From Girardia tigrina (Eukaryota), in contig MQRK01222116.1 of NCBI GenBank assembly GCA_001938485.1, forward strand, positions 1 through 53,446: a stretch of 53,446 bases of DNA, in the 5' to 3' direction. Made by a program: the position numbers and the translations under genes. Numbering within the stretch: position 1 is the stretch's first letter; each line of letters starts with the position of its first letter. The notes beneath the pieces were generated by a model. The model saw nothing but the letters and a program-made list of their open reading frames with translations. It was not told the origin of the DNA and ran no database searches. Below, in pieces: positions 1,596-46,388 of this stretch.

Positions 1596-1639
1596 TATTG
1601 GACATGTTTCGATGTTTACATACATCATCATCAGCAATT
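1596..1639 (-). ncRNA. Minimal type I hammerhead ribozyme (Penelope pLTR type)
   Basis: Minus strand: ATTG-CTGATGA-T-GATGT(ATGTAA)ACATC-GAAA-CATG-TC^CAAT. Intact core boxes, stem II, palindromic stem III (ACATGT), GUC cleavage triplet, stem I ATTG/CAAT. Confidence 0.85.
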
Positions 1640-14865: not shown

Positions 14866-14941
14866 CTGCAATTATAACATATGTTAGATAACATAACCTT
14901 AGAATGTTATAAATGAATTTGAAAAACAATGGCAATTCGTT

Positions 14942-15786
14942 AAAATAAAAAGTCGAAAGTCAATTGAAAATATTTATTAATTTCGACGGATTAACCGTCA
15001 TCGTCAGAACAACTAATTTTTTAAAAAGAAATTGACTTATATACTGCCAGTAATGATTATGTAATCAATAATTCATCAATAAATCATTCAAAAACCCTCA
15101 ATAAAGTTGTCGAGAGTGCATTTTGAACGTTAATTTTAAGATCCAAAAATCTCATATATAAATCACTCTCTCCAGTAATTCTTAAATTGAGTGCACAGAA
15201 TTTTAAAGTTATGGATGTTTATCTCCCCTTTGCGATGTTTACTGTGTCCAGCAATTATTACTTCCACTTTCCTTACGACTGTGTTCCTGGATTCTCTTAC
15301 AGAGATGACGCGAAGTCTCTCTAATGTATGTGGCATTACACCAATTATATGTATATTGATAAATGAGATCCGCACACAATCATAACAGTGTTGAAGATTT
15401 ATTACTAAACACACCTTCGATTTTTTGGGTAGGGGAGATTATTTTTAAATTTATTGTGTTATCTATTGCTTTTAAAATAGAATTTTTAAATGTTTTAAAA
15501 CCTACTGAATAAGGTACGGTCAAAATATATCCAAGATCCAAACTAATTTTATCAGTGTTACAAGATTGATCTTGATCTTGAACATCTGTAAATTTTTTAC
15601 TATTACTTTTTTCAATTAATTTATCAATAGTTTCTTTCGTTAGTTTATCAACTACTGATTTGGAAAATCCATTATCATATAGTAATTTTGTTAATTTATT
15701 AAGACTCTCATCACATCGCCTATATGTAGATGAAAGAATTCGTCGAAATTAATAAATATTTTCAATTGGCTTTCGACTTTTAATTA
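14942..15786 (-). mobile_element. Penelope-like 3' fragment (RT C-terminal linker plus decayed GIY-YIG plus pLTR) with a short inverted pLTR piece at its 5' end
   Basis: LTVPYS...LIYQYTYNWCNATYIRETSRHLCKRIQEH; same family as 40201-40822; 15741-15785 is the reverse complement of 14942-14988. Confidence 0.85.
14971..15012 (-). ncRNA. Minimal hammerhead ribozyme
   Basis: Minus strand: TTGTT-CTGACGA-T-GACGG(TTAAT)CCGTC-GAAA-TTAA-TA^AATA. Confidence 0.8.
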
Positions 15787-38379: not shown

Positions 38380-39201
38380 GAACGAGCTATCACCACCTGC
38401 TTGTGAAACTTGATCTAAAGCACTACCCTCCGCAACACGTGCCAATGCTCAGCGATTGCAACTTTGATAGACGATAAGAGTTTTCCAAAACGATTATGGA
38501 GAGATTCGACGCCGACCCTAATTTAATTGACCACATAGTGTGAACAAACGAATCTTTGTTTCACCTATCTGGAGCAGTATCACGACATAACAATGTTCGG
38601 TGGGGTCCAAAGAATCAACACGCTCAAGAGCAGTTCCTAAACTCTCGCCAGGGAATTATGGTGTAGTGTGGAGTAACTTCGGCAAGTGTCTTAGGACCTT
38701 ACTTCTTTGATGGTTCAGTCAATACTGATATATATCTACACCTGGCCTTATGTGAGATACAAGAGGCTTACAATCCAGCATGACGGCGCTCCTGTCCATT
38801 ACGCAGCTTCAGTACGACCAAAAGTTTCCTCAGTGGTGGATGGGTAGAGGTAGTCCAATGGAGTTACCTCCTCGTTCGCCTGACTTAACTGTGTGTGATT
38901 ACTTCTTCTGGGGCTACCTGAAGGAGCATGTATGTCACACAAGGCCTGCTACCATTGCTGGACTCCAAGACAAGATCGAGTACAAAATTAAAGAAATACC
39001 ACAGGACATAGTCAAAAGAGATGTCATGCAGCGTATGAGTGGCTTGAACAGGGAAAATAACTGCAAATATGATCCAATCAGAACATTCTCTGTATGTTGG
39101 CAGATACAGCTGTGCCATTAACTTTGCACTTTCTTTTATTTTGTCAGATATACATACAAAATTATTTCCTCCCATTACTTTTTTAATTTAAACACCTTAT
39201 A
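38380..39201 (+). mobile_element. Decayed DD41D (rosa/Visitor)-like transposase fragment
   Basis: IV*TNESLFHLSG, LGPYFFDG, QHDGAPVHYA and PPRSPDLTVCDYFFWGYLK motifs. Confidence 0.75.
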
Positions 39202-39872: not shown

Positions 39873-40038
39873 AAGATGAATCACGTTGAACATTTAAGCA
39901 TGGTTTGAAACGCTTAATTAACATTGATTTAGTGATTATCCTCTCATTATAACTATAAAAATTTGTATAAACATTTTGATAATTATGAGATGATAATATT
40001 GTTTAAAACATGCTTAAATGTTCAAAATTATTCATCTA
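39873..40038. repeat. Short inverted-repeat (MITE-like) element
   Basis: AGATGAAT..TTGAACATTTAAGCATG / CATGCTTAAATGTTCAA..ATTCATCT. Confidence 0.55.
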
Positions 40039-40229
40039 ATTCTAAATTTTTTTTATTTTTTTTTAATTTCAATTGTTAGAAATTAAGAAGTCTAAAAATG
40101 AGCAATGTTGCGTAATAGTCTTTCGCTTAAAAAAATTACTTAAATTTGAAATTTTCCCTTCGTCACCTGACGATGTCGAAACTTAAAAAAAATATTTAGA
40201 AAAATCAAAATTCGAAAGCTAATTGAAAA

Positions 40230-40272
40230 TATTTATTAATTTCGACGGTTTAATCGTCATCGTCAGAACAAA
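40230..40272 (-). ncRNA. Minimal hammerhead ribozyme (left arm)
   Basis: Minus strand: TTGTT-CTGACGA-T-GACGAT(TAA)ACCGTC-GAAA-TTAA-TA^AATA; one stem II mismatch. Confidence 0.75.
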
Positions 40273-40347
40273 TGATTTTTCAAACGAAATTTACTTATAT
40301 AATGCAGTTAATGATTGTGCACTCAATACGTACAGAAAATTGAAAGC

Positions 40348-40686
40348 ATGTTCGGCAATAAATCTCCAACGCCATTGGGATTGTGTTCGGATATCATTTA
40401 CCAATATACATGTAATGGGTGTAACGCCACATATATTGGAGAGACTTCACGTCCTCTCTGTAAGAGAATCCAGGAACACAGTCGCAATGAAGGTGGAAGT
40501 AACATTGCAGGACACAGAAGACATTGTAAAGGAGATATAACTTCACAACACTTTAAAATTCTGTGTACTCAATTTAAAAATTATTGGGAGAGAGTGACAT
40601 GTGAAGCGTTATATATAAGATCTTTGGATCATAAAATTAACGTTCAAACTGCACTCTCTACAACTTTGTTGAGAGTTTTTAAATGA
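40348..40686 (+). CDS. Uninterrupted Penelope-type GIY-YIG endonuclease ORF (~112 aa from MFGNKS)
   Basis: IIYQYTCNGCNATYIGETSRPLCKRIQEH...H...C...FKIL...EALYI...IN: GIY/YIG motifs, catalytic R/E/N and CCHH zinc ligands. Confidence 0.75.
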   Translation: MFGNKSPTPLGLCSDIIYQYTCNGCNATYIGETSRPLCKRIQEHSRNEGGSNIAGHRRHCKGDITSQHFKILCTQFKNYWERVTCEALYIRSLDHKINVQTALSTTLLRVFK

Positions 40687-40750
40687 TGTACTGATTACGT
40701 ATTGATTGCACAGTCATTAACTATATAAGTAAATTTCGTTTGAAAAATCA

Positions 40751-40794
40751 TTTGTTCTGATGATGACGGTTAAACCGTCGAAATTAATAAATAT
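40751..40794 (+). ncRNA. Minimal hammerhead ribozyme (right arm)
   Basis: TTGTT-CTGATGA-T-GACGGT(TAA)ACCGTC-GAAA-TTAA-TA^AATA; perfect stem II, palindromic stem III. Confidence 0.85.
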
Positions 40795-42313
40795 TTTCAA
40801 TTGGCTTTCGAATTTCGATTTTAATAATCTGCCAATTTTTTTTCAATTTATTCACAATTTAGAAAAATAGTGGTTTTTTTGTTATATTTAATCAATTGCC
40901 TTTTTATATTTGAAAGGAAAACCTTCACATAAAAGACGTCTATTAAAAGTACATCATTTTTAAAGTTCTGTATTTTTACTTTCAGTAAAAAAAGTAAAAC
41001 TCAGTATTTTTAAATTGATTTTATTTAGAGTTTTATTTTTTTCTGAGGCAAAATATTATTCGTCATTTTTTAATTGTAGACAGCATTTACATTGTTATGC
41101 AGGAAAAGATTTTTCTGCAAGGTACATTACCATAAAGAACTTGTTAAAAATATATATGTTATATATAGACACGCAATTTAACATATTTTATAATTAAGTT
41201 TTCTTATTCTTAATTTGATGTTTTTATCTATTTGTGCAAATTTATAATTTATTAATCCATATAAATGCTGACACAAATAATGAATAAGAAAGTCGAAATT
41301 TTGAAGTTGTTGGAAAGTGGTAAAAGTATAATAACTACTGAAAAATTCAATGTTTCAAAAGGAACAGTACAATCAGGATAGGAGAAAAATAAGTATTTTG
41401 CCAAACATCAATTAAGAGGAACTTAAAATTTCTACAACTGGACTTAAATGTGATCAAACAGGGTGGCCCACAATTAAAGCAGTAAAATCAATTTATCGAA
41501 ATCTATTTTAAAAGAAAATGTGCATTTAAAATATTAAAATTTTAGTAAAAAAGTTTTTCGAAGTGCTTTCTTTCTGATGCAATGACGTTTTGAGTTCTTT
41601 TATTAAACCCGTCATTGACTTTCACCAATATTTTATAGTGTTCATTGTCCAAATTTTGTCAACCATGTACCCAGGTGGTTGATTAATGCAAGAAAATTTT
41701 GTATCCTATAGCAGGTCAAATTTTAAAGAAAAGGCGTTAAAGGTACAATAAAATTAGAAAAGGTGAAAATAAATTTACTCCCAGGGATTGGCTGTAAAAG
41801 TGGAAAACAAGAAACGCCATAAAAATATGTTTGGATTAAAAAGAATTAACAAAAAAAAATAAAACTAGGGAAAATAATTTGATTGGTGATAACTAAAACC
41901 AATTTTTCGGTTTATTTTGAGTTAGGCTACCCGTGAACAACAGTGTATAATGATAACTAAATTTTCATAGCGCTTATTAGAATGAATAAGACTAATAAGT
42001 ATAATCACACCAAAAAAGTTTTTGGTGTACAAGCTTTTATAATTTGTCATATGTTTGCGGTTCTGTATCTATTTCACCCACTTCCCATATTTTTTTGACT
42101 GAATTATCAAAGCCTACTTGGCGAAAACCCGCTTTTTATTTGCATTTAGATGTAGCGAATTTCAAAGCCTACTACTGAGGAAAACATGAGAACGACACTT
42201 TAATTACTTTTTGCGGCCAAAATAAAGGCGGTAGATGAGCAGTGACAGTGAAAACGTGTATTGTCACCTAGAATATATCAGTCGTGAAAGTTTCATTCCG
42301 CTAGGTGAACGGG

Positions 42314-43918: not shown

Positions 43919-46049
43919 CTATAAGTGGGTGAATTTTCGATCGCAAGATTTGATGCATCCAGACAGAAAAAACAAACAAATGAAACGTAATAAAAGCTTG
44001 TAAATATAGAAAAATAAAAAATAAATACAAAAAATGGAATAGAATATTAGAATTTACTTGTAACATTTAATGAGAAAGTCAAACAAAAGCTGATTTTCGT
44101 AAGAAAAAAGATAGTCGATAATATGCTGATTGTCGCTGTCATTGTCGATCGCTGTTTTGTCACAGACGACTCCATAAATGTCATTGACAAACTGCACCGA
44201 GTCACTCAATTCCGGTAAATGCCACATCGATCGGAATCTAGACGGAAAATGACGGCTTTTATATTTTTTTTATATTTTTACTCAGTATTTTTTACAATCA
44301 ACAATAATAAAGTATAAATAACTTTTTTTTATAAATTAAAAAAAATAAAACAACGATTTTTGGAATAAAAACTTTAATTAGATCACACACGACTTTTAGG
44401 TTTTCCAAAAAAATATAGGGTACCCCACAACTACGCGAACCAATATAATGCTAGGCGCGGAAGCCATAATGAATCCAAGAAATTAAATAACACAAAAAAT
44501 ATATTCTCAACAATATTTTTCAAATATTCATTTTGATTCAAAAGAATCTCCATGTGCTGAGATGCAGGCTTGCAGACATTTTGGAAAAGTATTGCCAGTG
44601 ATAGAAATGTATGGAATATTGAGCCCTTCCAAAGTGAATTCTTACGTGAATCAAGATTTGAATGGGGCTTAAATCCGGGTCCTCTAAACACACTCAGAAC
44701 GCTGTAATCCGAAAGGTGATGATGCCGGCTAATTATTAAAATTGATGAAATCTGAAGTTTTTTAGCACCATTCCTGAACGATTTGGCCTTCTTGCAAACA
44801 AGAAATTCGATTTCCTAAATGGTTTGAGCCAAAAATTTCGTCTGCAAAATTTGACTTCAATAAATATTGATTCTTTGATATACAAAACTAGGTAACGTTT
44901 TTTCACTCGCAGTGATATCCGATAAGACTGTCAACACTTTTGTTTAATTGTCGCATTTGGTTTTGATTTGGCGTAAATTCAGTCATAATGTTTTTTGAAA
45001 CATTTTTTTCAAACTTTTACATTAGTGAAGAATGCTATGATGGTCAATTCCTATAAAATGATGGTGCAACAGGCCTGATTGATTATTGAAAACAAAAGAG
45101 ATTGTAATCAACTGCGGAGAAAGAGTTCAAAAATACAATAAGAGACACCATTGCTAATCAAGGTTTGAATTCGACAATAGAAGAGAGGAAAGAGCTGAAA
45201 GAACAGATACAAATGTTAAATGACACAAGCGCGTACACAGGGGGGATTAGGGGGATAAATCCCCCCGAACAGTTTGAATGATGATCTTAAGTACGTAAGA
45301 ATAAGTTATAATGTTTAAAATTTTATTATGTGAACAAACTAAAATAAAAAATATTTTGCAAATTAAAAATATCCACCGAAAAAAGTGAATTATTATCTTA
45401 ATTACATAAGTTTTTTTTTTACTTAATAAGAATAAGAATAATTTAAAATGTTTAGGTTTTAAAGAATACAAAATGTCAATTACAAATTCACAAGTTGTAA
45501 TCGTAATCTTAAATTTCAGTATATCCTGTAATTTACAGGATATCACTTTTTCTACCTTTTCATGATTTTTTCACATCTCAAATTCACAATAGATTCTTAA
45601 AGCACCGAAAAGTTTTGCAGAGCATAGAAATTTTTCTTCCTCTAAATATTAAAAATGCTGCAGATAACAAAATCCTACTATCCACAGAAGCCATTAATGA
45701 ACAATGGCCAAATGATATTAGTTGCACTAAAGAAGTCTTTTTTGGAGAAGTGATGATGTTGAGGCATCATTGTATTAATCAGAAATATCTTTCCATGGAC
45801 TTTATTCATTGCTTGAATATTTGTAACTTTCATTTATATCCAACGATTCACAATAGGCTGAAGTTATTTGCAACTTTACCAGTAACAACAGCCACGGCTG
45901 AACGATATTTTTCTACTTTACGCAGAATCAAGATCTACTTATGAAACACAACATCAGAGCAGAGATTTAATGGTTTAGCTATTATGAACATTTACAAGGA
46001 ATTTCATTTTTAATTTCATTTCATTTCTAAATCATACAAAATTCAAAGT

Positions 46050-46388
46050 ATGTTCAGCAATAAATCTCGTACTACTTTGAGTTTATGTTCCAATCTGGTT
46101 TATCAATTTTCGTGTATTGGGGACAATGCTACATACATTGGAGAAACGTCTCGTCATCTCTGTAAACGGATTCAGGAGCATGGACGATTGGGTAATGGAA
46201 GTAATATTGCTGGGCATATGAAGGTTTGTAGATCGGAGGTGAAAACAACTAATTTTAAAATATTGTGCAGTAACTTTAAAAATTATTGGGAAAGAGTTAC
46301 CTGTGAGGCATTATTGATTGAATCACTTAATTCGTCCATCAATATCCAAACAAGCCTTTCTTCCAATTTGTTAAAAATATTTAATTAG
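46050..46388 (+). CDS. Uninterrupted Penelope-type GIY-YIG endonuclease ORF (112 aa)
   Basis: LVYQFSCIGDNATYIGETSRHLCKRIQEH...EALLIESLNSSIN; paralogous to 40348-40686; second Cys replaced by Asp. Confidence 0.7.
   Translation: MFSNKSRTTLSLCSNLVYQFSCIGDNATYIGETSRHLCKRIQEHGRLGNGSNIAGHMKVCRSEVKTTNFKILCSNFKNYWERVTCEALLIESLNSSINIQTSLSSNLLKIFN

Follow-up and report, generated by a model that had tools for sequence, protein, structure and literature searches.

Penelope-like elements (PLEs) that carry an endonuclease domain (EN+) have been described with inverted, 5′-truncated copies of themselves, one-sided tails of 30-40 bp and target-site duplications of about 10 bp (PMC8557442; PMC3846280). The hammerheads of PLEs are of a minimal kind with a bulged base and a palindrome, and are reported to give undetectable cleavage as monomers and low cleavage as dimers (PMC4209133), while in Schistosoma mansoni dual motifs were described on opposite strands, about 100-700 bp apart (Cervera and De la Pena 2014, PMC4209133). 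In PAc, a Poseidon element of Anolis carolinensis, the ORF starts at hammerhead stem II and the ribozyme cuts 26 nt past the start codon, and the account of this element gives insertion in vitro as unaffected by hammerhead mutations (PMC11167929). Animal retrozymes are described as non-coding, tandem, same-strand repeats (bioRxiv 10.64898/2026.07.22.740005).

The window analysed here, i.e. the whole stretch of 53,446 nt represented by contig MQRK01222116.1 of the Girardia tigrina assembly GCA_001938485.1, harbours a compact unit in which a GIY-YIG frame is bracketed by two inverted arms. Comparison of this unit with its relatives gives us high confidence that it is a 5′-truncated Penelope-like copy joined head-to-head to its own inverted end repeat, likely formed in one insertion and likely in neutral decay since. 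A sequence-only reading of the window had left two possibilities, a truncated Penelope-like copy with an inverted pLTR and an RT-less, EN-carrying retrozyme-like mobile unit; the former is favoured by the RT-bearing relatives, the tail, the 12-bp duplication and the variable breakpoints of the family, and the latter is opposed by a junction found once, by hammerheads on opposite strands and by a neutral omega over 99 copies. The features of the locus are the following.

40194..40205, no strand: left copy of the target-site duplication, 12 bp, ATTTAGAAAAAT, an exact match to 40857-40868
40201..40332, minus strand: inverted, 5′-truncated pLTR arm without tail, 132 nt
40223..40283, minus strand: minimal type I hammerhead motif of the left arm; core at 40266, predicted cut near 40234
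40329..40335, no strand: head-to-head junction of inverted arm and truncated body, from alignment with parent copies
40348..40686, plus strand: GIY-YIG frame from ATG to stop, 112 aa
40687..40822, plus strand: 3′ UTR / pLTR of the element, including the right arm at 40696-40822 (127 nt)
40740..40800, plus strand: minimal type I hammerhead motif of the right arm; core at 40757, predicted cut after 40789
40763..40765, plus strand: likely true start codon of the parent, inside the hammerhead; the same ATG frame continues in locus L116
40823..40856, plus strand: one-sided tail of about 34 nt, the left arm having none
40857..40868, no strand: right copy of the target-site duplication

The arms, ORF and motifs of the 620-bp unit initially placed at 40201..40822 were all recovered, but its extent had to be revised, as the element runs to about 40856 and includes the tail, with the 12-bp duplication beyond. 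A single 12-bp duplication encloses arm, body and tail; the last 5 nt of its left copy also fit the outer end of the inverted arm, and alignment of copies established that most of them stop at the same TTATTCACA motif at the end of the tail. The junction at 40329..40335 lies 15 nt upstream of the internal Met of the EN frame, at a CGTA(C) stretch which is common to the arm and the parent. The arms (40201-40332 and 40696-40822) are inverted copies with 91.7% identity by BLASTN, and the several substitutions and 5-bp indel earlier noticed between them were counted as 6 substitutions and one 5-nt indel. The latter, a deletion at 40722 of the right arm, is rare, being present in 1 of 121 family arms. 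For all 6 substitutions, as for the indel, the allele of one of the two arms occurs in no more than 6 of 110-125 family arms. The arm-to-arm difference of 6/127 nt corresponds to about 2.4% per arm, and the arms and the ORF are about equal in age. Owing to this similar mutation level, coupled with rare and mostly private arm alleles, the divergence of the arms needs no second template; a two-template origin was considered and ruled out, as one arm holds the rare allele at every difference.

The left flank contains two further features. A 36-nt inverted repeat at 39874-40037, 86% complementary and with its halves 92 nt apart, is possibly a small MITE-like element. At 38756-39121 (plus strand) a 121-aa frame with a LPPRSPDLTVCDY motif had no Pfam match at E<=1, and presumably resembles a fragment of a Tc1/mariner transposase.

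That each arm holds a hammerhead, one per strand, was borne out by CUGANGA...GAAA cores at 40757 (plus strand) and 40266 (minus strand). Both arms present the order CUGANGA, an unpaired U, a stem of at most 5 bp, GAAA and then the palindrome AUUAAU; in the right arm the unpaired U precedes a 5-bp stem II and the palindromic AUUAAU replaces stem III, and the left arm has lost the loop-closing pair of stem II through a rare change at 40254, an allele found in 2 of 125 family arms. The elements of a minimal PLE hammerhead, i.e. two boxes, a bulged N before stem II, a palindromic 15.2-16.2 and helix I, are thus present. The motifs were called from the conserved boxes together with published minimal-hammerhead descriptions and are treated as putative ribozymes; an Rfam search of the unit at E<=5 returned no hammerhead match and four chance matches only. 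The hammerhead-compatible fold was calculated at -6.2 (right arm) and -3.0 (left arm) kcal/mol, as compared to -14.5 and -9.1 kcal/mol for the minimum-energy fold. The proposed dsRNA panhandle of a read-through transcript is likewise predicted from either strand, and pairing of the arms within it would bury the hammerhead core. As there is just one core per strand, no transcript could be cut at both ends, nor could any form an intramolecular dimer; the hammerheads are passengers of the pLTR that point away from each other.

Two other hammerhead-like sequences were observed in the window. A short CUGACGA..GAAA match with almost no stem II lies at 40167-40181 (plus strand), in the left flank and outside the duplication, and may be a relic or a chance match. 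A different motif, CUGAUGA...GAAACAUGU with a palindromic ACAUGU, is present at about 1600-1634 (minus strand); a sequence akin to it seems to follow the PLE copy in locus L051, and it may belong to another repeat family.

The 112-aa GIY-YIG ORF is, as had been noted, free of stops from the ATG at 40348 to the stop at 40686, and its 123-aa stop-to-stop frame matches the Pfam GIY-YIG family PF01541 with 24.5 bits against a cut-off of 22.6. The ATG is not, however, the ORF's own as had been assumed, since it represents an internal Met of the parent RT-EN frame, upstream of which most fetched copies read on through ...KVISRTQKIES-M-FGNK. Nor is the intact ORF unusual, the frame being open in 43 of 99 family copies. 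In loci L021 (295 aa) and L034 (370 aa) RT sequence and the GIY-YIG EN of the unit occur in one open frame. Pfam analysis of parent copies detected RVT_1 in L043 (E=1.2e-10) and GIY-YIG in L021, and returned no match for L034 at E<=0.01. Over 40333-40857 the window copy shares 95-96% identity with its nearest relatives, and RT-bearing relatives are about 95% identical; the existence of nearly identical full-length RT-bearing parents, one of the observations by which the sequence-only reading would distinguish its two possibilities, is therefore upheld as regards close RT-bearing relatives but not as regards a complete, open, full-length parent ORF, none of which was present among the loci examined. 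In the near-full-length loci L041 and L116 the N-terminal domain follows on from a direct pLTR piece and the tail, and lies in the frame of the hammerhead ATG. The corresponding ATG of the window copy, at 40763, reads 35 codons before a stop in the flank, and the cut predicted after 40789 falls 26 nt past it.

Inspection by eye of the EN translation, IYQYTCNGCNATYIG...QEH...AGH, identified a CCHH motif with two Cys between GIY and YIG, following the definition in PMC8557442. By the same means no CX2-5CxxC zinc finger was seen in the RT-EN linkers of L021 and L034, such a finger being reported for Neptune and Nematis (PMC8557442). Based on the Cys pair between GIY and YIG, the downstream His and a linker free of a zinc finger, the parent appears to be an EN+ Penelope-like element whose features fit the Penelope/Poseidon type. 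Other features of EN+ PLEs found in the family are RT and EN in one frame, a pLTR as a partial tandem that overlaps the ORF start, an adjacent inverted 5′-truncated copy, a one-sided tail and an AT-rich target-site duplication.

The window also contains other members of this group. A related subfamily is represented by an older copy at 14916-15785 (minus strand), in which the EN is broken and which shows 81.5% identity over 525 nt. Its layout is that of the unit with another breakpoint, the hammerhead recurring at 15007 and a 45-nt inverted arm occupying 15741-15785. A more distant GIY-YIG fragment at 46038-46314 (plus strand) is 72.6% identical to the EN of the unit. In the EN region of 56 copies, transitions at CpG sites were about 2.4 times as frequent as those at other C/G sites (59 at 16 sites versus 167 at 109), which is a hint of CpG methylation in the host.

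The assembly is 1.43 Gb in size and fragmented into 255,254 contigs; a DNA search with the unit yielded 5,029 first-look candidates, 40 of them being scored. Exact motif counts fall inward from the 3′ end, from 1,889 for a hammerhead 34-mer to 865 for an EN-Met 26-mer and 189 for an RT 26-mer, the last of which was taken from one copy and may undercount. Recurrence of the 5′ junction at independent loci, as expected of a mobile unit in its own right, was not observed: allowing up to 1 mismatch, the junction 23-mer matches once in 1.43 Gb. What was seen is the other outcome, that truncation points differ per copy, the breaks being scattered and the junction of the window copy unique. Among 95 of the first 100 listed EN-Met matches (of 865, in contig order and with redundant copies kept), upstream breaks range from -9 to -1152 and adjoin an inverted element piece in 43 cases, other DNA in 32 and a direct piece in 4, with a gap or contig end in the remaining 16. 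These 95 breaks do not pile up before the Met, with 4.4 per kb in the first 50 nt as compared to 2.5-5.6 per kb further up. Across the genome, the parent letters at -22 to -17 are absent from 35 of 986 Met matches; in the 30 of these that were inspected, 9 of which are small indels within parent sequence, there is no second copy with this arm, the window copy being its sole carrier. Recurring short junctions, in L211/219/232 and in L215/216/217, were rejected as redundant assembly copies with identical flanks.

Double-arm structures as such are common in the family. In 34 double-arm rows (33 loci including the window copy) the hammerhead spacing, which like all unit sizes was taken from fetched loci only, ranges from 77 to 2,980 nt and the duplications differ, a duplication of at least 10 nt being present in 22 of 34 rows as compared to 27 of 1122 mismatched control pairs. 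The locus that most resembles the window copy is L002, where the arm ends at +346 (+348 in the window copy) and the body starts at -21 (-15 in the window copy), with the same CGTA overlap; its junction letters and duplication are other ones, its flanks are unrelated, it is 91% identical and it has different variants in its 3′ part, and we interpret it as having arisen independently, at a favoured microhomology. In L001, L002, L109, L180 and L208 the inverted arms often end near a TACGTA palindrome just past the stop (+345 to +353 from the Met); joining may be favoured at this site. With regard to public data from four runs, no contig piece bridging the junction was present among the 32 longest of 313 matches listed, a result of little weight, contigs being prone to drop rare forms; contigs of runs X3, X6 and X9 (presumed RNA) contain the family and gave nothing for the window locus, and no raw RNA reads with this stretch were found.

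Within the EN frame, 6 of 339 nt of the window copy depart from the family majority, through 3 synonymous and 3 non-synonymous changes. For the family, 99 copies spanning the domain were retained from 118 hits after removal of L004, L008 and near-identical duplicates, and when set against a spectrum-weighted neutral expectation, their singleton mutations gave an omega of 0.97 (CI 0.72-1.34); taken together, rare mutations are neutral. Variants common to at least 4 of 56 copies (8 synonymous, 11 non-synonymous) gave an omega of 0.39, as expected under selection on active master lineages. The dN/dS of about 1 that would speak for mere truncation products is therefore seen across the 99 copies, but not in the 12 EN-only double-arm units, where the estimate is below 1 with an interval that includes 1: at three rarity thresholds omega was 0.57 (CI 0.25-1.42), 0.56 (0.30-1.09) and 0.75 (0.42-1.40), with one-sided permutation p values of 0.065, 0.029 and 0.18. 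The pairs L003/L004 and L006/L008 share flanks and are redundant; when kept in, they inflated the result at the second threshold to an omega of 0.49 with p=0.017.

These values could be taken to indicate that ordinary truncation was followed by weak retention of EN-only double-arm copies, each acting as a stand-alone GIY-YIG nickase translated from the internal Met, an account we rate as most improbable. It draws on the omega of 0.56-0.75 and on the open frames in 8 of 12 units of the class, as compared to 35 of 87 other copies. However, all of the intervals include 1, the class of n=12 was defined post hoc with three thresholds tried, and 8 of its 12 members were obtained by a search in which hits were ranked on their similarity to the window copy. 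Moreover, EN-only copies without an arm gave an omega of 0.95-1.29, breaks do not accumulate before the Met, both pLTR start codons face away from the EN frame, and the six differences of the window copy are evenly divided between synonymous and non-synonymous changes. The low omega of the EN-only double-arm units is probably noise, and the broader notion that such copies represent mini-genes for a stand-alone nickase, weakly maintained by purifying selection and potentially able to provide RT-only copies with EN in trans, is very unlikely.

It is barely credible that the unit represents a non-autonomous, EN-carrying mini-element or retrozyme that moves through hammerhead-processed RNA. The unit does possess a target-site duplication, an open EN frame and both hammerhead boxes, a very similar layout exists at another locus in L002, and animal retrozymes are described as derived from PLE pLTRs (bioRxiv 10.64898/2026.07.22.740005), but the junction 23-mer occurs once and the L002 copy, only 91% identical, has different junction letters. 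In addition, 7 of the 10 nearest EN relatives are longer copies and none is an EN-only double-arm unit, EN-only units differ among themselves (17.2) about as much as from longer copies (18.7), hammerheads on opposite strands leave one per transcript and so no unit-length cutting, and none of the 32 of 313 matches listed from the four public runs bridges the junction. That the inverted arm arose after insertion, by local inversion, a repair event or a second insertion, or that it is an assembly artefact, is scarcely conceivable, for while the assembly is fragmented, inverted PLE structures are reported to trouble short-read assemblies (PMC8557442) and no bridging public contig is among the matches listed, both arms lie within one 12-bp duplication, a situation shared by 22 of 34 rows, each arm has rare mutations of its own at a level in keeping with the age of the ORF and not to be expected of a collapse artefact, and a contig of run X1 links the left flank to the left arm (40000-40229).

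For a 5′-truncated PLE copy with its inverted end repeat, a route of formation may be proposed by analogy with the biochemistry of PAc (PMC11167929). In AT-rich DNA, the parent RT-EN protein would introduce nicks into the two strands at a distance of 12 bp, and reverse transcription would be primed inside the pLTR RNA from each end. At one end priming would use the far start site, about 94 nt past the ATG, which would yield the tail and a copy of about 525 nt, and at the other end the near start site, about 55-60 nt past the ATG, with about 130 nt copied. The two incomplete products would then be joined at a microhomology of 4-5 nt. We infer this two-ended priming model for the family; self-priming on an antisense template, as proposed for Adineta elements (PMC3846280), may represent an alternative route to the same structure. 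The EN frame survives in the window copy because copying stopped 15 nt beyond the internal Met and because this copy, with 6 changes over 339 nt, is young; it was likely dead on arrival.

The literature already contains both inverted pLTRs and hammerhead pairs on opposite strands at distances of 100-700 bp, and the unit is thus known in kind; it belongs to a known class with hundreds of truncated copies and matters little alone. The family is useful as a data set, since its double-arm copies, with clean duplications, two end positions bracketing the tail and scattered head-to-head junctions with short overlaps, bear the traces of how the inverted pLTR is formed. It also extends the PAc-like arrangement, in which an ATG in the hammerhead is followed by the predicted cut 26 nt later, to a family from a different genome. 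Should the weak omega signal prove true, it would represent a retroelement endonuclease working apart from its own RT.

When compared with known systems, the unit shares with non-LTR retrozymes a type I hammerhead related to PLE pLTRs, but differs from them in having coding sequence, opposite-strand motifs and one copy (bioRxiv 10.64898/2026.07.22.740005). Where a retrozyme has at least two same-strand tandem hammerheads, one core per strand was found in the unit, and where a retrozyme or non-autonomous PLE is repeated at independent loci, the junction was found once genome-wide. As in the S. mansoni PLEs, the unit has an opposite-strand motif pair, here about 500 bp apart, whereas its stem II is 5 bp as opposed to the 7-8 bp described for the S. 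mansoni families (PMC4209133). With EN+ PLEs such as those in PMC8557442 and Pen2/Pen2a of Adineta vaga (PMC3846280) the family has in common an RT with a C-terminal GIY-YIG, Cys between GIY and YIG and a pLTR, as well as the inverted 5′-truncated arm, a tail at one end, a duplication of about 10 bp and frequent 5′ truncation; unlike these, it is a different family in an AT-rich animal genome, and the window copy is so short that only the EN domain remains. Element ends in this family are at about 55-60 and 94 nt past the ATG, as compared to RT starts at 111-118 nt in PAc (PMC11167929). As in PAc, for which AT-rich targets and an ATT preference are reported, the duplication of the unit begins with ATT and the tail lies between two end positions, and the likely parent start codon is located inside the hammerhead with the predicted cut 26 nt later (PMC11167929).
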